Source: an uncultured Gammaproteobacteria bacterium | GTDB lineage: Bacteria; Patescibacteriota; Microgenomatia; PFEM01; JAPLYW01 | Direction of reading: 5' to 3' | Assembly (NCBI GenBank): GCA_964546445.1 | Contig: CAZJJY010000002.1 | Coordinates: forward strand, 1-38,099 | Length of the DNA stretch: 38,099 nucleotides | In this document: positions 15,103 to 23,925 of the stretch, piece by piece | Layout of the letters: each line of letters starts with the position of its first letter | Position numbering within the stretch: the first letter of the stretch is position 1 | Program-made: the position numbers and the translations under genes | Notes under the pieces: generated by a model | What the model was told of the DNA's origin: nothing | The model's database searches: none | What the model saw: only the letters and a program-made list of their open reading frames with translations

Positions 15103-16518
15103 TTATTTTTTATCTTTGATTTCTGAAGAGTTATTTCCTGTCCAACAGTAAAGACAAAGTCTGTTTTTGGGTAGTCCTATGGCTTTGACCATATCATCAA
15201 CTGTTTGATAAATTAACGAAGTAACTCCTAATTCTTTCCTAATCGCTTCAACCATTTTTTTATAAGAAGGAGATTTATCATCAAGGAATTGTTCAATATC
15301 TATTTTTTTCTTCCCCATTAATTTTTTAATAGTCCTTCTGGCGGCTAACTCCCTTTTAGTTCTGGTTGATAAAAGATAAGGGCAAGGAAACATCAAAGGA
15401 GGGCAAGCAATACGAACATGAATTTCTTTGGCTTTGTTTTTCCATAATTTTTCAATGGCCTGATTTTTTAATTGGGTTCCCCTAACAATAGAATCATCAC
15501 AAACAACAATTTTTTTTCCTTCGATAACACTGCCAACGGGAATTAATTTTAATTTGGCAATTTTATTTCTTATTTCCTGTGAGGGTGGAGTATAACTCCG
15601 ACCATAGCCATCAGTATATTTAATTAAAGGACGTTCATAAGGGATTTTAGCTTCTTTGGCATAACCTACGGCATGAGCAATCCCAGAATCAGGAACTCCA
15701 GTTACCAAATCGGCTTTAACCTTATCCCTTTTGGCTAAATTAGCTCCACAACGTTCTCTAACCATCTCAACATTAATATCTTCATAAGAAGATGCTGGGC
15801 AACCGGTATAAATCCATAAAAAAGAACAGAGCTTATTTTCTACACCAACTATTTTCTTACTTTTTAACCCATTTTTATTAAAGAAAACTATTTCACCGGG
15901 TTTAAATTCTTTAATTGGTTTAAAACCTAAGTTGGGAAGAGCGCATGTCTCAGAAGTAATAACTAAAGAATCTTTATCGCGACCAACAACCAAAGTTGTC
16001 TTACCACTTTTATCACGAGCAGCATAAATTCCCTCCTTAGATAAAACTAATAAGGACATTGCACCTTTAATCTGCTCAAACATATATTCAATACCAGAAA
16101 TAATATCATCTTTTCTAGCGATAAGCTTTCCTATCACTTCGGTAGTATTAATTTCACCACCACTCATTTCAGAAAAGCTTCCTCCAACTTTCATAATAGA
16201 TTTAGCTAGACTATTTTTATTTCTTAAAAGGCCAGCGGTCACTAAAGCAAAATTACCAAAAGAACAGGAAACAATTATTGGTTGAGGATCAAAATCACTA
16301 ATAACCCCAATACCCTTTTTACCTTTTAATTTAGAAATCTCTTCAATGAATTTTGATTTAAACTGAGAAGTAGAAATGTCATGAATACAACGAGAAAAGC
16401 CTCGGCTAAAAACAACCAAACCAGCCTTTTTAGTCCCTAGATGAGAATGATAGTCAGTCCCATAAAAAAGGGTCTGACGACAATCTTTCTTGGAAAGAAC
16501 TCCAAAGATACCACTCAT
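15103..16518 (-). CDS. Amidophosphoribosyltransferase (PurF)-like protein with Ser in place of the N-terminal Cys
   Basis: Ntn-GATase-like N-terminal domain plus a PRTase domain: VPDSG, RSYTPPSQEIR, and the PRPP loop VVCDDSIVRGTQ. The N-terminus is MSGIFGV rather than MCGI. Confidence 0.75.
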   Translation of the reverse strand: MSGIFGVLSKKDCRQTLFYGTDYHSHLGTKKAGLVVFSRGFSRCIHDISTSQFKSKFIEEISKLKGKKGIGVISDFDPQPIIVSCSFGNFALVTAGLLRNKNSLAKSIMKVGGSFSEMSGGEINTTEVIGKLIARKDDIISGIEYMFEQIKGAMSLLVLSKEGIYAARDKSGKTTLVVGRDKDSLVITSETCALPNLGFKPIKEFKPGEIVFFNKNGLKSKKIVGVENKLCSFLWIYTGCPASSYEDINVEMVRERCGANLAKRDKVKADLVTGVPDSGIAHAVGYAKEAKIPYERPLIKYTDGYGRSYTPPSQEIRNKIAKLKLIPVGSVIEGKKIVVCDDSIVRGTQLKNQAIEKLWKNKAKEIHVRIACPPLMFPCPYLLSTRTKRELAARRTIKKLMGKKKIDIEQFLDDKSPSYKKMVEAIRKELGVTSLIYQTVDDMVKAIGLPKNRLCLYCWTGNNSSEIKDKK

Positions 16519-16575
16519 AAAAATTATGTTTTAGATTTTAACAACAAACTTAATAATGTAAAGGAGTAATTCTGT

Positions 16576-17601
16576 TTAATTGATTAAATTATCCAAAATT
16601 TTCCATCTTCTTTTCTTTTCTGGAGGAAGAACATCATCTTTCAGTTTAAAAGCTGCTGTTCCTTTTCTTGGAGAATAACGATTTACAAAGGCTCTATCAA
16701 AACCAACTTTTCTACATAACTTAACGGTATTTTCAAATTGTTCTTTAGTTTCTCCTGGAAAACCAACGATAATATCAGTCCCTATCTTAATATCAGGAAT
16801 CTCTTTTCTAATCTTTTTAACTAAATTAAGATAATCTTTTATTTTATAAGAACGATTCATTTTCTTTAATATCTCATCATCACCCGATTGCACAGGTAAA
16901 TGTAAATAACGATCAATCTTAGGTAACTTCATAACCTCTATAATCTCATCAGATAAATCCCAAGGATTAGAAGTTAAGAAAGAAATCTTTTCAACTCCTT
17001 TAACCCCATGAACTTTTTTTAATAAATTTGCAAAGGACTTCCCTGCCTTATCATCATAATAAGAATTAACATTCTGTCCTAATAAAACAACCTCTTTACA
17101 GCCATCCTCAACCAATCTCTCTATTTCACAAAGAATTTCATCTAAAGGAAAACTTTTTTCTTTTCCCCTTCCATAAGGGACAACGCAATAAGAACAAAAA
17201 TTATTACAACCTTTCATTATTGGAATTAAAACAGAAGTTTTATTTTTTCTTTTAGGAACAGTTGAATCAACCAATTCTCTAATCAATTTAAATTCATCAA
17301 CGTTAGGAAGTTTTTTCTTTAATTCAGAAATAGAGTAACGACGCCTATCTTCTCTAGCTGAGCCAACCATACAACCAGTCAAAATAATGTGAGGAGATTT
17401 CTTTAACTTATTTAAATTATTAACTAATCCAAAAACACGATTCTCTGCTGATTCTCTTACAGAGCAACTATTAATAACCACCAAATCAGCATCTTCTGGT
17501 TTTAAAACCAATTTATAACCTTTCTTTTCCAAAACACCAGAAATCTTTTCAGAATCTGCCTCGTTCATCTGGCAACCAAAGGTTTTAACAAAGTATTTCA
17601 T
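16576..17601 (-). CDS. MiaB-family radical-SAM methylthiotransferase, apparently lacking the TRAM domain
   Basis: MTTase N-domain [18 protein letters not shown]...NSCSVRE...TGC. Radical-SAM motif CNNFCSYCVVPYGRG. It ends at 341 aa, where a TRAM domain normally begins. Confidence 0.8.
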   Translation of the reverse strand: MKYFVKTFGCQMNEADSEKISGVLEKKGYKLVLKPEDADLVVINSCSVRESAENRVFGLVNNLNKLKKSPHIILTGCMVGSAREDRRRYSISELKKKLPNVDEFKLIRELVDSTVPKRKNKTSVLIPIMKGCNNFCSYCVVPYGRGKEKSFPLDEILCEIERLVEDGCKEVVLLGQNVNSYYDDKAGKSFANLLKKVHGVKGVEKISFLTSNPWDLSDEIIEVMKLPKIDRYLHLPVQSGDDEILKKMNRSYKIKDYLNLVKKIRKEIPDIKIGTDIIVGFPGETKEQFENTVKLCRKVGFDRAFVNRYSPRKGTAAFKLKDDVLPPEKKRRWKILDNLIN

Positions 17602-17644
17602 AGACTATATTTTAACTTATTTTTGAGGCTAAAGTAAGGAGAAA
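17526..17644. repeat. Direct repeat, left copy (5' end of the MiaB-like gene plus 43 bp upstream)
   Basis: Aligns gap-free with 19197-19315 at an offset of 1671 bp. I count 110/119 identities. Confidence 0.85.
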
Positions 17645-17743
17645 ATGAAGATTGATAAATACATAAATAAATATATTGATTATATGAAGTATGAGCGTGG
17701 TTTTGCTGAAAATACCATTATTGGGAGAAAAAAGCTCTTTTAG
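17645..17743 (+). pseudogene. Tyrosine recombinase (XerC/D / phage integrase) N-terminal fragment
   Basis: A 32-codon ORF, MKIDKYINKYIDYMKYERGFAENTIIGRKKLF-stop, preceded by AAGGAG. The YL..ERG.s.NTi pattern is typical of the integrase SAM-like N-domain. No catalytic domain follows. Confidence 0.5.
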
Positions 17744-17812
17744 ATTAAACAGGTTTTTTTTTAAATTTTTATCTCCCTATTTACAACTCCAATAAAAAAT
17801 TATAATATAAGA

Positions 17813-17843
17813 TTGTGGTTATATATACCAAATATGGTATAAT
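17813..17843 (+). promoter_or_regulatory. Cassette promoter with an operator-like palindrome
   Basis: TTGTGG (17813-17818) and extended -10 TGgTATAAT (17835-17843). The perfect inverted repeat TATACCA-aata-TGGTATA (17824-17841) overlaps the -10. The first ATG of the cassette is only 13 nt downstream. Confidence 0.5.
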
Positions 17844-17855
17844 TGTTGAGGATGA

Positions 17856-18206
17856 ATGCAAGATGAAATTGATTATTACAAATCTCTTAATGGCAGAAAG
17901 TATGCCAAAGAGTTTTTGGACGGAATTTTTTCGTCGCATAAGCAATTATGGATTCAAATAAATACTATTTTAAAACATATCAGGAACAGGCAAAACAGGA
18001 AACGTCCGTTTACCGCCTCACTGGGTAACGGTTTATTTGAAGAAAGGGCAAGGTCTAATACATTACAAGCTAGAATAAATTTTTGCTATGATAAAGACGG
18101 AATAAAATTACTGAATGGTTATCTTAAAAATGATAGAAGAAGTATGAATAGTGGAATAGCTTTTGGAAGAAAATTATTAAAGGAAAAAAATAAAAAGGAA
18201 AAATAA
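17856..18206 (+). CDS. Gp49-like / HigB-like toxin (RelE/ParE superfamily)
   Basis: EIDYYKSLNGRKYAKEFLDGI...LGNGLFEERARSNTLQARINFCYDKDGIKLLNGYLKN...GIAFGRKLLKE follows the phage Gp49-like addiction-toxin pattern (I.YY...V..FL..L...L..GLyELR...aRI.F....i.LLhGf.K...I..A). Confidence 0.7.
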   Translation: MQDEIDYYKSLNGRKYAKEFLDGIFSSHKQLWIQINTILKHIRNRQNRKRPFTASLGNGLFEERARSNTLQARINFCYDKDGIKLLNGYLKNDRRSMNSGIAFGRKLLKEKNKKEK

Positions 18207-18208
18207 AA

Positions 18209-18631
18209 ATGAAAAATAGTTATTATAAAGATATCTCTAAAAAGGTTTCAAGCGATTCAAGTTTAAAAAAAGAACTAAAAGATGCAGAAAAAGCTGTTGC
18301 CATTGCTCAACAATTATATAATTTAAGAAAAAATAAAGGCTTAACTCAAACACAATTCGCTAAACTTATTGGTGTTAGTCAACCAAATATAGCTAGATTA
18401 GAAAGTGGAGATTATAAAAGTTATTCTCTGAGGACTCTTAACAAAGCTGCTGATGCTCTAGATTCTAATGTTGAAGTTAGAATTACACCTAAAGAAACCA
18501 AAACATATAAACAAGTTTGGGATATTCCTTCAGTTAAGATTTCTTTAGAAAAAACGGTTAAAAAAACGGATACTAAAGACGTGTCTAAAAATTTTAAAAT
18601 ATCTGGTTTTTTAGAAAATTACGCAATATGA
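18209..18631 (+). CDS. XRE-family HTH antitoxin-like protein with a C-terminal extension of about 50 aa
   Basis: The HTH is LRKNKGLTQTQFAKLIGVSQPNIARLESG. The gene starts 2 nt after the toxin stop. Residues from about 92 to 140 lie beyond the HTH domain. Confidence 0.75.
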   Translation: MKNSYYKDISKKVSSDSSLKKELKDAEKAVAIAQQLYNLRKNKGLTQTQFAKLIGVSQPNIARLESGDYKSYSLRTLNKAADALDSNVEVRITPKETKTYKQVWDIPSVKISLEKTVKKTDTKDVSKNFKISGFLENYAI

Positions 18632-19110
18632 AAATAAAACACATATGGTCAGTTTTATGTAAGGAAAGTGTAATCAATCAAGATGATAACACTATCTCTT
18701 TACATGGAATATTAGAGAAACTCAGCTCAACACTAAAACCAATAAATAATCCAAAAACAACTGATTTAAAAAAACAAAAAAAGATTGTATTTCCTATCAG
18801 TTATGAAATAGTAAGTTTTTGGACTAAGGAATTAAGTAAAGAAATAAATCTTAATATTAGTATCAAATTGATTGACCCCAAAGGAAATATATTAGAAAAG
18901 ATAATAAATGAAGCAAAATTTCCAAAAGAAAGTAAAAGATTAAGAACTAGATTAAAAGTGCAAGGTCTTCCAGTATCAGAAAATGGTATGTATTTATTTA
19001 AAGTATCTGTTAAATCAGAGAAAGAAAAAAAATATACTATTGTGTCAGAAATCCCATTAGAAGTGCAGTATAAAATTATTCCTGATAATAAAAATACTCC
19101 GCCTAATTAA
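18628..19110 (+). CDS. Uncharacterised 160-aa protein, third cassette gene
   Basis: ATGA overlap with the antitoxin stop. No signal peptide, TM segment or catalytic motif is visible. The alternating hydrophobic pattern suggests a beta-rich fold. It loosely recalls small DUF-type proteins (possibly DUF6941), unverified. Confidence 0.6.
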   Translation: MKIKHIWSVLCKESVINQDDNTISLHGILEKLSSTLKPINNPKTTDLKKQKKIVFPISYEIVSFWTKELSKEINLNISIKLIDPKGNILEKIINEAKFPKESKRLRTRLKVQGLPVSENGMYLFKVSVKSEKEKKYTIVSEIPLEVQYKIIPDNKNTPPN

Positions 19111-19196
19111 TTAGATATAAGAATAAGTAAATAACTTATAACTAAAAACGGGAATTAAAAGTAGTTTAAAAAATCAAAGAATGGGGTACAATCTGG

Positions 19197-19272
19197 TTTC
19201 CAAAACACCAGAAATCTTTTCAGAATCTGCCTCATTCATCTGACAGCCAAAAGTCTTAACAAAGTATTTCAT
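19197..19272 (-). pseudogene. Orphan 5' fragment of a MiaB-like gene
   Basis: Reads [25 protein letters not shown], identical in protein to codons 1-25 of the intact gene. It then diverges and stops within 8 codons. Confidence 0.75.
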
Positions 19273-19315
19273 AACCTATATTTTAACCTATTTTTGAGGC
19301 TAAAGTAAGAAGAAA
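19197..19315. repeat. Direct repeat, right copy
   Basis: Matches 17526-17644, with 9 substitutions and no gaps. Confidence 0.85.
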
Positions 19316-19350
19316 CTCTAAGCTTTAATAAAAATAATATAATTAAGATC

Positions 19351-19991
19351 ATGGATGAAAAAAATAACTCTTCCGGACTTAAATTTCACCAACTATCTGA
19401 AGAAGCGAGAGAAAAAGACAATCATCTCGAGGCTTTAAAATTTATTGAAGAGGCCATCTTTAATTACCAGAAAGAAAAAGATTATTCTAGTCTTGTTAAA
19501 GCTATGCTATTTTAGCTCAAAAAGATTCCGAAGCAAGTCTTTCTATTGCTGAAAAATATAATCTTACAGAAATAATTGGTTCTTCTTATTTTAATCTTGG
19601 TAAGACAGCCATGCTTTTCAAGAGCTATAAAGAGGCTATAAAACAATATGAATTAGCCATTGAAAAATATCATGGAACTAATACAGAAAAGGGAGATTAT
19701 TATTATCATTTAGGCGAAGCCTTCTTTAAAGACAATCAAAAAGAAAAAGGTAAAGAAACAATACTCAAGGGATTAAAACAAATAGAAGATTATGCTGACG
19801 AAGTTGATCCATTCCTTGTACATGTATGGTCTTCAGGCTGTCATATATATTTAGCAAAACTATTAAAAGAAGATAACCCTCAAGAAGCAAAAGAAAGTTT
19901 TGATAAAGCAAAAGCAATTATTGACTCCGACGATAAACTTATTATTCGTAAAAGACAAATAAAAGAATTGGCTAAAGATTTTGAACAATAA
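19351..19991 (+). pseudogene. TPR-like helical-repeat protein, interrupted by a frameshift near 19500-19512
   Basis: Frame A (ATG 19351) stops at TAG 19513-19515. Frame B is open from 19500 and runs to 19991. The joined product of about 210 aa has repeated A-x-x-Y/F...G...A TPR-like helices. The pattern is consistent with a 1-nt deletion. Confidence 0.6.
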
Positions 19992-20527
19992 AAAAGGTTA
20001 TTGTTTCATAAAAAAAGAAGTATACAATAAAAATTAGTACATGAACAAGTGAGCAAGAAAAAATAAGCAAATGCGCTTATATAAAACTTTCTTAAAATAA
20101 TACTGAGAGAAAGGATATAATTGACTCGCCAAATCATTGAATGAATCATCACGCTAAAAAAGGAGGCACTTATGCGCTCGACAAGAGGATTTAACCAAAC
20201 TAAAACGCAGATGGAGGACAAAAGCTAAAACCGACAAGAGAACTAGGTTTTAACACTAAGGTTTCAACGAAGAAAGGAATGATGTTTATGAAAGTAATGG
20301 GTAGTGGTTTCAAGGATATTGATGTATTGGTAGCAAGAAGCAGTCGTAGTTAAGGTAAACAATATAAGCCCTTAACACTATATTTCTCAGGCGGGAGTAG
20401 GCTATCTTTAAAGGCTATATAGCAAATATAGATACCATAAACAAAGACCCTACTCCTCCCCTCAACACAATTCCAAATATTTAAATAAATTAAAATAGAA
20501 AAACTTTAAAAACTTTTTAGAGGTATT

Positions 20528-22411: not shown

Positions 22412-22891
22412 TTACTTCTTTTTGATCTTTTCATCAAGTATTTTCTTAACTGTTTCGTAAGAAAAGCCTCTTCTTAATAAGAAATTACCCATCTTTTGCC
22501 TTTTCTTAAAAAAAGGCAAATTAGCTAAAGCTCTTTCCTTTTTTAAAAATATCTTCTTTGCTAAAGGGACTTCTTTTATCTTTCCTTTAACCATTTCATC
22601 CAATAGTTCTTTAGCAATACCTTTGTTTAATAACTCCATGATTAACAATCTCTCCCCCCGCGGACGGAAAGTAGATCTTTGATCTAACCACCACTTTACA
22701 AAATCTTTATCGTTGATTAAATTTAAAGTTCGAAGTTCAACTAAAACTTTTTCTCGAAGTTCTTCATCTTTAGGTCTTTTTTTAAAAAGATAGTCTTTGA
22801 TTTCTTTTTCGCTACGGGGTCGAGAAGATAAAAAACGTGTTGCTTTATCTAAAAGTCTTTGAAAATTTATAATTGCTTTTCCTTTTTCCAA
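22412..22891 (-). CDS. recX: Recombination regulator RecX
   Basis: 159-aa basic helical-repeat protein. It overlaps the 3' end of recA by 25 nt. RecX-like N-terminus ([19 protein letters not shown]). Confidence 0.75.
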
Positions 22892-23862
22892 ATTTCTGCC
22901 TCAATTTGCTTACTTAACTTAGGATTCTCTTCTAAAAATATACGAGCGGCTTCTTTACCTTGAGCGGTCATCTGTTTTCCATATTTATAAAAAGCACCCG
23001 ATTTTTCAACAATCCCTAATTCTACACCCTTATTAATAATATCTGCCTCTCTAGAAATACCAGCATTATTAAGAATATCAAATTCAGCTACTCTAAAAGG
23101 TGGAGCCATTTTGTTTTTCTTAATCCTAACTCGATGGCGAGAACCAATTGCTAATTCTCCATCTTTGATAACTTCTATCTTTCTAATATCTAATCTCATC
23201 GAACAATAAAATTTCAAAGCTAAACCACCAGGAGTTGTTTCTGGGTTACCAAACATGACACCAATTTTATGGCGTAATTGATTGGTAAAGAGAACAACTG
23301 TTTTTGATTTAGAAATAGCCCCTGTTAATTTACGCAAAGCCTGAGACATTAATCTGGCCTGTACTCCAATCATTGAATCTCCCATTTCGCCTTCTATTTC
23401 TGCTCTAGGGACTAAAGCGGCGACAGAATCAACAACAATTATATCAATTCCTCCAGATCTAACTAAAGTCTCAACAATTTCTAAAGCTTGTTCTCCTGTA
23501 TCTGGTTGAGAAATTAAAAGCTCATCTAAATTAACTCCCAAAACCTCAGCCCATGTTGGGTCTAAAGCATGTTCGGCATCGATAAAAGCGGCGACTCCGC
23601 CAGCTTTTTGCGCTTGGGCAATAACACTTAAAGCAACAGAAGTTTTTCCAGAAGCTTCGGGACCGAATACTTCAACAACTCTTCCACGAGGAAAACCACC
23701 AACTCCTAAAGCAATATCTAAAGAAATAGAACCAGAAGAAATAACATCAACTTTCTTAACCGCACCCTTTTCTCCCATCTTCATAATAGAACCCTTACCA
23801 TACTGTTTTTCTATCTGTTCCATGGCAATTTTTACTGCTTGTTTTTTCTGATCTTGGCTCAT
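22867..23862 (-). CDS. recA: Recombinase A
   Basis: [12 protein letters not shown], Walker [18 protein letters not shown], and L1/L2 loops. Start set at ATG 23862 (MSQDQKK...) because the longer track ORF adds 13 non-conserved residues. Confidence 0.95.
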
Positions 23863-23925
23863 AGTGAATGTAATTTTGGCATAAAGCATACCAAAAAACA
23901 AGAGATAAATTTAAAATAATAAGAA

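Follow-up and report, generated by a model that had tools for sequence, protein, structure and literature searches.

A cassette between two copies of the miaB 5′ end in a Patescibacteria population: en-bloc import from a relative and a possible origin in a decayed integrative element

Herein we describe a 1.55-kb insert that is bracketed by two 119-bp copies of the 5′ end of miaB, a methylthiotransferase gene, in a genome of the Patescibacteria (Candidate Phyla Radiation, CPR). The DNA analyzed, hereafter the window, is a stretch of 38,099 nucleotides (contig CAZJJY010000002.1 of assembly GCA_964546445.1), and loci that were compared with it carry handles such as L101, its sister strain. The insert, or cassette, lies within a divergent block of ~3.1 kb that was imported en bloc into this species by homology-facilitated illegitimate recombination (HFIR) and not by integrase action, a conclusion that is well supported under either reading of the repeats. 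As to how the repeats themselves arose, we favor, with slightly better than even confidence, a decayed integrative element, i.e., an integrase-type origin of the repeats that was followed by the en-bloc import from a relative. The argument draws on the following features, in which ORF denotes an open reading frame.

16576–17601, minus strand: miaB, radical-SAM methylthiotransferase of 341 aa, intact (Pfam UPF0004 and Radical_SAM)
17526–17644, minus strand: left repeat, attL-like, joined to the working miaB (alignment and allele comparison with relatives)
19197–19315, minus strand: right repeat, attR-like, an orphan copy (alignment; colinear with the TPR–miaB intergenic region of empty sites)
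17526–17562, equal to 19197–19233: identical block of 37 nt, miaB codons 14–25, the sole uninterrupted identity of more than 21 nt
17645–19196: the insert as a whole, 1.55 kb, between the two repeats
17645–17743, plus strand: 32-codon tyrosine-recombinase-like stump, MKIDKYINKYIDYMKYERGFAENTIIGRKKLF followed by a stop codon (weak NCBIfam and tblastn matches)
19351–19991, plus strand: TPR-like gene, a pseudogene with ORFs of 54 aa and 126 aa (58-bp deletion at 19497/19498)
Left edge 16384–16459, right edge 19497/19498: imported divergent tract of ~3.1 kb, the 'type 1' haplotype (comparison with L101)

Pairwise alignment of the two repeats gave 110/119 identities with zero gaps at an offset of 1671 bp, exactly as a first-pass annotation of the sequence had counted them, and the 40 nt beyond the repeat ends are unrelated (12/40 and 16/40 matches). 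Each copy spans 43 bp upstream of the minus-strand miaB plus its codons 1–25 (−43 to +76). The five differences within the coding part are precisely those that the annotation had listed (AAA/AAG, ACC/ACT, GGT/GGC, TGC/TGT, and AAC/AAT), and since all five are synonymous, the left and right repeats encode identical stretches of 25 residues; the chance of five out of five synonymous differences in 25 codons is 2 × 10−4 if any change is allowed and 3 × 10−3 if only transitions are. All nine differences between the repeats fall in the promoter-proximal 82 nt and none in the distal 37 nt (P = 0.03 under uniform placement). These 37 nt form the identical block, which would represent the crossover region. 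Among relatives this block is more variable than the remaining 82 nt of the repeat, and a chance identity is therefore unlikely. As a generic genome-wide motif the promoter segment was rejected, because its only two matches in the window are the repeats themselves, and neither a tRNA nor a tmRNA target was found in the window.

The claim that the target gene is regenerated holds, in that miaB is intact after the insertion, with a complete ORF of 341 aa whose first 25 codons and promoter sit within the left repeat. A promoter-like −10 (TAAAAT, 17609–17614) lies in this repeat, 7 nt upstream of the miaB ATG, and may be a miaB promoter element. The MiaB protein scores 367.8 bits against the NCBIfam equivalog TIGR01574 (cutoff 355.3; profile positions 1–367 of 437); in this clade MiaB is 341 aa long and has no C-terminal TRAM domain, yet exceeds the equivalog cutoff. 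No excess divergence was seen in the miaB body adjoining the repeat, and a donor tract reaching into the gene body beside it was rejected for that reason; none of 86 other miaB loci carries a duplicated miaB 5′ end.

That the repeats bracket a true insertion is borne out by empty sites, where the TPR-like gene lies directly beside miaB and the 119-bp segment is present as a single copy. Such sites were found in the 99%-identical L101 as well as in L102–L104, L105, L106, L107/L110, and L113, thus spanning the sister strain and at least four related lineages, and these contigs encode MiaB homologs at 84–88% identity and an intact TPR-like gene of 231–242 aa, divergent from miaB. In L107, the two alignments to the window overlap by exactly 119 nt. 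The first-pass annotation had named, as one outcome that would speak against its reading, a duplicated arrangement in all related genomes with no empty site and no mobility signal; the empty sites dispose of it.

Comparison with the empty sites also gives the duplication a polarity. The right copy, together with the sequence that flanks it, lines up colinearly with them and carries unique or minority states at 2 of the 9 differing sites. In the left copy, the states at −3, +21, and +39 are unique and those at −38, −16, and +18 are rare (6/9 differing sites). Over the 82-nt segment the left copy differs from the consensus of the relatives at seven positions and the right copy at two, with close relatives differing at one or two, although these relatives are 12–13% diverged genome-wide. 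Colinearity and common alleles on the right, together with minority alleles on the left, imply that the orphan is the displaced native promoter and 5′ end, and by these alleles the working miaB appears to use the incoming promoter and first codons. The proposal that one repeat is a once-functional allele is thus upheld, in the form of a displaced 5′ end. A further step taken in the first-pass annotation, that the synonymous-only differences point to an element, does not follow: the orphan copy and L101 differ at six coding positions, all of them synonymous (6/6), a pattern that orthologous alleles of this conserved N-terminus show in general. It is thus not element-specific and would indicate just that each copy evolved, in a lineage of its own, as the start of a functional gene. 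The orphan repeat retains its promoter-like region and ATG, and a 32-codon ORF (MKYF...ETRLYPIL, then a stop) runs from 19272 down to 19174, antisense into the cassette and towards its DUF6941 gene.

The short ORF begins one base past the left repeat, with the N-terminus MKIDKYINKYIDYMKYERGFAENTI (MKIDKY(I)NKYIDYMKYERGFAENTI). Its Shine-Dalgarno sequence, AAGGAG at 17636–17641, lies inside the left repeat and is created by a G at 17639, which neither the right copy nor any empty site has and which otherwise occurs only in L021, a locus described below. Among the 18,950 models of NCBIfam the sole family reported for this ORF was NF001399, a XerD-type tyrosine recombinase (E = 0.07), with residues 4–25 aligned to profile positions 6–27 of 300. 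The best tblastn match, in a six-frame search of 80 related loci, is to residues 1–30 of a Phage_integrase protein in L096 (10/30 identical; E = 0.014 within the 80-locus set and 2 × 10−5 pairwise). This protein has a Phage_integrase and an N-terminal SAM-like domain and is one of only two tyrosine recombinases in the 80 loci. Both similarities are in N-terminal register, and the short ORF is probably an integrase stump. Searches of the PDB, Pfam (E ≤ 10), PHROGs (E ≤ 10), and, by tblastn, phage records returned nothing meaningful for it, and no integrase remnant was detected in any frame of the insert tail or downstream, nor was a recombinase C-terminus. Where an intact tyrosine recombinase with its catalytic residues would be expected beside an att site, 32 codons remain. 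The integrase remnant that had been proposed just inside the left repeat is therefore retained as a tyrosine-recombinase-like ORF at that position, although with weak similarity (E = 0.07; 10/30).

Two other occupied miaB loci bear on how the site is used. In L021 (OZ246397.1, 6940–8001), a 615-kb CPR chromosome with 79% MiaB identity, the 43-nt upstream region is followed, at the same position, by the first 11 codons of the short ORF (27/32 nt identical) and then by nadE; a TPR-like gene is lacking at this locus, and a second copy of the miaB 5′ end is absent within 8 kb. The record is labeled Gammaproteobacteria, which looks like a mislabel. In L111 (760–2100) and L112 (630–800), with 81% MiaB identity, the space between the TPR-like gene and miaB is occupied by a gene for a GT87 glycosyltransferase, and the miaB promoter segment is duplicated from about −35 to +9. 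The GT87 ORF appears to start on the native miaB ATG (MRY...), and here the gene-attached copy is divergent (17/82 versus the consensus) and the TPR-proximal copy is conserved.

The import of the block was resolved by comparing the window with L101, which is the same species (nucleotide identities of 99.2% for the purF-like gene, 99.8% for rny, 99.2% for rubrerythrin, and 99.8% for miaA). Against flanking genes at 99.2–99.8%, the miaB genes of the two strains share 88% nucleotide identity. Mismatches number 0–2 per 100 nt up to about 16400 and then 8–17 per 100 nt through miaB, and the divergence extends across miaB and the two repeats and 150 nt into the TPR-like gene, where it stops exactly at 19497/19498. 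The tract so delimited, 10–12% diverged from L101, runs from the 5′ codons of the purF-like gene through the entire miaB allele and the cassette with its two repeats into the TPR-like gene, of which it includes the 5′ third. On its left side the divergence switches from ~0.2% to ~12% at 16384–16459, in the first purF-like codons, without an indel or rearrangement. The right edge is abrupt: the last 42 nt up to 19497 hold nine mismatches, whereas the following 90 nt are free of them (P about 8 × 10−5 at 10% divergence). Missing from the window at this edge are 58 bp that every relative has kept and that are flanked there by two copies of AAAGCTAT, an 8-bp direct repeat, of which the window retains one (19498–19505); their loss frameshifts the TPR-like gene, which is intact at 231–242 aa in the relatives.

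In HFIR, a single homologous segment anchors the foreign DNA, the other end of which is joined at a microhomology of 3–10 bp, with loss of recipient DNA, as is given for naturally transformable bacteria (de Vries & Wackernagel 2002 and Prudhomme et al. 2002, summarized in PMC6382021). Both kinds of junction are present here, namely an ancestry switch without an indel on the left and, on the right, an 8-bp microhomology with recipient loss, and together they are the signature of HFIR. Since the repeats and the cassette lie inside the tract, they arrived together, and whatever structure gave rise to the repeats predates the import. The first-pass annotation had left open whether the diverged allele was element-borne or acquired by recombination with a relative; recombination with a relative did bring the block here, but no integrase-driven integration took place in this genome. 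The window itself encodes a RecA-like sequence (recA, ORF 22867–23901; Pfam RecA_N on the orthologous gene), and natural competence has been demonstrated for Saccharibacteria only (PMC10633639).

Several haplotypes of the tract coexist in the population. L122 shares the cassette and the right junction with the window but carries L101 alleles at 40/40 informative sites in 16384–16838, which places its left edge near 16838, and L019 has the cassette background with a 9-SNP patch of L101 alleles (9/9 informative sites) in the 3′ part of miaB. In these mosaics, homologous exchange that trimmed the left edge of the tract after the import is visible in some strains. Within the 37-nt block, a SNP at 17534 (A>G, V23A) is present in 8 of 20 contigs. 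Cassette (L014) and empty (L102) haplotypes occur together in sample ERZ27315536, and a third haplotype (L102–L104) equals L101 over 16300–19527 and is then 17% different. In the TPR–HU intergenic region (20117–20450), the window and L101 diverge strongly and differ by many indels, although the flanks are more than 98% identical, and in part of it the window is nearer to the third haplotype (L103); this region may be another recombination patch.

The history that we favor would have begun in a donor lineage about 88–90% identical to this species. There, a small circular element carrying a tyrosine-recombinase-like gene, a Gp49/HigB-like–XRE–DUF6941 module, and 119 bp that mimic the miaB promoter and codons 1–25 would have integrated by a single (Campbell-type) crossover within the first 76 nt of miaB, in the 37-nt block (codons 14–25). 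Afterwards the working miaB would use the element-borne promoter and codons 1–13 (left repeat), and the native promoter and 5′ end would be left as an orphan on the far side (right repeat). The recombinase gene would later have been cut down to 32 codons, and the self-regulated toxin-antitoxin-like module would have survived. A Campbell-type crossover would account for the direct repeats, the hybrid polarity, the distal identity block, and the recombinase-like gene abutting the repeat. In a second step, reconstructed by comparison with co-occurring strains, the donor miaB, both repeats, the cassette, and the 5′ end of the donor TPR-like gene moved into the present species, by a homologous crossover in the first purF-like codons on the left side and an illegitimate joint at the 8-bp AAAGCTAT in the TPR-like gene on the right, where 58 bp were lost and the frame shifted. 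Later homologous exchange with insert-free strains then trimmed the left edge of the tract in some strains. Read in this way, the attL/attR interpretation of the repeats stands as regards the insertion, the empty sites, a probable integrase stump, and the regenerated gene, but the element is dead and entered this genome by recombination.

The chief alternative needs no integrase step and makes the duplication a by-product of recombination between diverged haplotypes. A donor fragment with the MKIDKY gene as the upstream neighbor of miaB (as in L021) would have been anchored in miaB and illegitimately joined at +76, with the outcome that the donor 5′ end keeps the gene intact and the recipient 5′ end stays as the orphan. 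Such an origin is possible, and we take it seriously, yet we judge it rather unlikely. In its favor, microhomology-mediated illegitimate joining demonstrably occurs at this locus, at the TPR junction; the GT87 insert of L111/L112 lies in the same place with a different duplicated segment and, again, a divergent gene-attached copy; the cargo module is present without an integrase in three other loci (L116, L117, and L120); and an intact integrase or attP was not found. It leaves unexplained, however, the perfect identity of 37 nt at the distal end of the repeat, which is the most variable part among relatives, and the miaB body shows no extra divergence that would mark the end of a donor tract. 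The ORF abutting the repeat also resembles a recombinase N-terminus, and a recombinase gene beside the repeat is the canonical layout of an integrative element. Moreover, the usual outcome of the HFIR events described so far is a loss of recipient DNA and not its duplication.

A local tandem duplication of the miaB 5′ end upon cassette insertion, i.e., a long target duplication followed by divergence in place, would readily give direct repeats that flank the insert exactly, and synonymous-only changes are what purifying selection on a functional copy should leave. It predicts, though, that the free orphan is the more changed copy, and the opposite was found: the constrained functional copy has 6–7 derived or minority states and the orphan about two, which disfavors this origin and agrees with the first-pass annotation that the pattern is not the neutral decay of a local duplication. 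The 82-nt segment shows 1–2 changes in relatives that are 12–13% diverged genome-wide, the G at 17639 is common to L021 together with the recombinase-like ORF, and there are no terminal inverted repeats and no transposase; to our knowledge, target duplications of 119 bp are not a feature of transposons. We therefore regard a local duplication as improbable. Still further down the scale is an assembly artefact, in which collapsed or chimeric strain variants of the miaB 5′ region had been joined, as the first-pass annotation had cautioned. Several haplotypes do coexist in the same samples, with short 'bubble' contigs (L102–L104), but the repeat and cassette structure is found again, at 99.7–100% identity, in 20 contigs of separately assembled metagenomes (JGI and ENA). 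In all, the identical structure is present in at least 21 contigs that differ in sample, assembler, and source, reach up to 89.7 kb, and span both repeats, which excludes an artefact for practical purposes.

Several points weigh against an integrase-type origin of the repeats. A full-length recombinase with the N-terminus of the short ORF was not found among 1.84 billion representative proteins searched by HMMER, and a word search of 5.8 billion proteins returned the stump alone, so that the integrase assignment depends on a stretch of 32 residues with weak E values (0.07 and 0.014). Neither a circular form nor an attP or intact element was seen, and the donor is a congener lineage outside the sampled set. 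The identity of the 37-nt block could stem from gene conversion between the repeats instead of a crossover. L021, with its attL-like junction, shows no second copy within 8 kb and is at best a possible case of independent use of the site, and the insertion in L111/L112, with its shorter duplication, does not fit a fixed att core and suggests that non-site-specific processes can create such duplications at this site.

Beyond the recombinase-like stump, the insert consists of a cargo module and a non-coding tail, with the features below.

17775–19110, plus strand: three-gene cargo module with its own promoter and operator (Pfam, PHROGs, and NCBIfam)
17825–17840: palindrome ATACCAAATATGGTAT, overlapping a −10 TATAAT (17838–17843)
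17856–18206, plus strand: Gp49/HigB-like gene, 116 aa (phrog_2523; weak Pfam match)
18209–18631, plus strand: XRE-HTH gene, 140 aa (HTH_3, 4 × 10−12)
18628–19110, plus strand: DUF6941 gene, 160 aa (domain match)
19111–19196: non-coding insert tail, 86 nt, ending at the right-repeat junction

The first cargo gene matches Pfam Gp49 at E = 0.0011 and 19.4 bits, below the threshold of 23.9, and its counterparts in L117 and L120 carry a precomputed Gp49 match. With its sub-threshold match, this small Gp49-like gene is adjacent to and co-oriented with the XRE-HTH gene, and the pair may be described as toxin-antitoxin-like. Small Gp49-family genes followed by an XRE-HTH gene, with a palindrome overlapping the −10 of the promoter, are likewise the layout of HigBA/Gp49 type II toxin-antitoxin systems, and the patchy genomic distribution of the module is shared with them and typical of addictive modules that outlive their mobile carriers. 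Unlike those systems, the module has a conserved third gene, DUF6941 (a predicted beta-sandwich), that by its position appears translationally coupled, and its putative toxin falls below the Gp49 threshold. The AlphaFold model of the DUF6941 protein (pLDDT 87.7) has nine strands and no helices, an all-beta sandwich, and its best PDB matches are lipid-binding proteins of the UNC119/PDE6-delta/RhoGDI kind and carbohydrate-binding beta-sandwiches (Wzt domain), at TM 0.4–0.5. A role as the SecB-like chaperone of a TAC system was rejected, as the predicted fold is all-beta and SecB is alpha/beta. No mention of DUF6941 was found in the literature searched.

The same three-gene module occurs elsewhere in Patescibacteria (L114, 2997–4318; L116, 7131–8459; L117, 6233–7465; and L120, 1716–3026), which answers the question, raised at first pass, of whether the cassette is found at other loci, although there the module has no flanking repeats. 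Nucleotide identity to the window is 74% for L114 and 65% for L116, both of which have the palindrome ATACCAAATATGGTAT upstream. The module sits between pgk and gap in L116, forms an operon between rpsG and fusA in L117, and has other neighbors again in L114 and L120, amounting to at least four unrelated housekeeping contexts, and neither an integrase nor flanking repeats neighbor it at any of the four loci.

For the 86-nt tail, no homolog was present in any fetched locus. Within it (19165–19192, plus strand), a weak promoter-like match, TTTAAA-16-TACAAT, points through the right repeat, and in a circular form it would face the recombinase-like ORF. Other classes of element were considered for the insert and rejected. 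A transposon or insertion sequence is contradicted by the lack of a transposase domain and of terminal inverted repeats at 17645/19196 and by a repeat that is 119 bp long and 8% diverged; no intI- or attC-like features of an integron were found; and PADLOC gave only generic HTH matches, so that no known defense system was recognized. Neither the repeat pattern nor the two cargo proteins searched had relatives in IMG/VR, and a scan of metagenome DNA with the conserved promoter pattern yielded four loci, all of them empty sites or other contexts, and no intact element. Among contigs that have this miaB allele and cross the site, of which 10 of the 12 listed were read, all carry the cassette and no excised form was seen. 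With no integrase body and no excised form among the contigs with this miaB allele, the element is now dead and immobile.

Known systems offer partial parallels. SXT/R391 elements supply a new 5′ end and promoter to prfC, which stays functional. Here, similarly, the promoter and first codons of the working miaB would come from the side of the insert, and the repeat adjoins an integrase-like gene. In SXT/R391, a tyrosine recombinase integrates the element into the prfC 5′ end via near-identical attP and attB sites, according to the passage of PMC2791158 that cites Hochhut & Waldor 1999. The insert described here differs in being about 1.5 kb long and dead, with 32 recombinase-like codons, no conjugation genes, and another target gene, and in that its repeat is 119 bp long and 8% divergent, with no excision product or attP known. 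By analogy, it also resembles phage 21 and e14 in the icd gene of Escherichia coli, in having a diverged copy of a gene end, an intact gene, and what may be a displaced pseudo-end. In those cases the element carries a diverged copy of the end of its target gene and keeps the gene intact, the displaced pseudo-end lies at the other junction, and the differences between the ends are mostly silent. Phage 21 and e14, however, replace the 3′ end, retain active integrases, and exist as complete or defective prophages. As regards the import, the homologous left junction, the 8-bp right joint at AAAGCTAT, the 58-bp deletion, and the 1.55 kb of heterologous DNA between the junctions are all as in HFIR. 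In contrast to the HFIR events described so far, this one was inferred from natural haplotypes of an uncultivated CPR population and not from experiment, and, unlike HFIR with fully foreign DNA, the donor was a congener ~88–90% identical, so that the right side is partly homeologous.

None of the mechanisms proposed here is new in kind; they comprise the remnant of an integrative element and an acquisition of the HFIR type, in a phylum that has received little study. Most CPR/Patescibacteria are uncultivated, and gene gain in their small genomes is poorly documented. The coexistence of several haplotypes at one locus makes a step-by-step reconstruction possible, from a probable element remnant that regenerates a housekeeping gene, through interspecies transfer and the loss of a neighboring gene, to the erosion of the tract by homologous exchange. 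At the population level, it is direct evidence that transformation-like recombination, with an illegitimate joint among its products, took place in a natural population of the CPR, and it flags an uncharacterized Gp49–XRE–DUF6941 module that spreads between housekeeping loci. More speculatively, and we hold this as a doubtful extension, the insert may belong to a family of small tyrosine-recombinase elements in Patescibacteria that target the first 76 nt of miaB and carry a promoter and 25-codon mimic, the loaded site being passed between species by transformation-type recombination. If that were true, the miaB promoter and 5′ end would be a recurrent site of cargo capture (the toxin-antitoxin-like module here, nadE in L021, and GT87 in L111), and this would be the first integrative element that regenerates the 5′ end of a gene to be described in the CPR.

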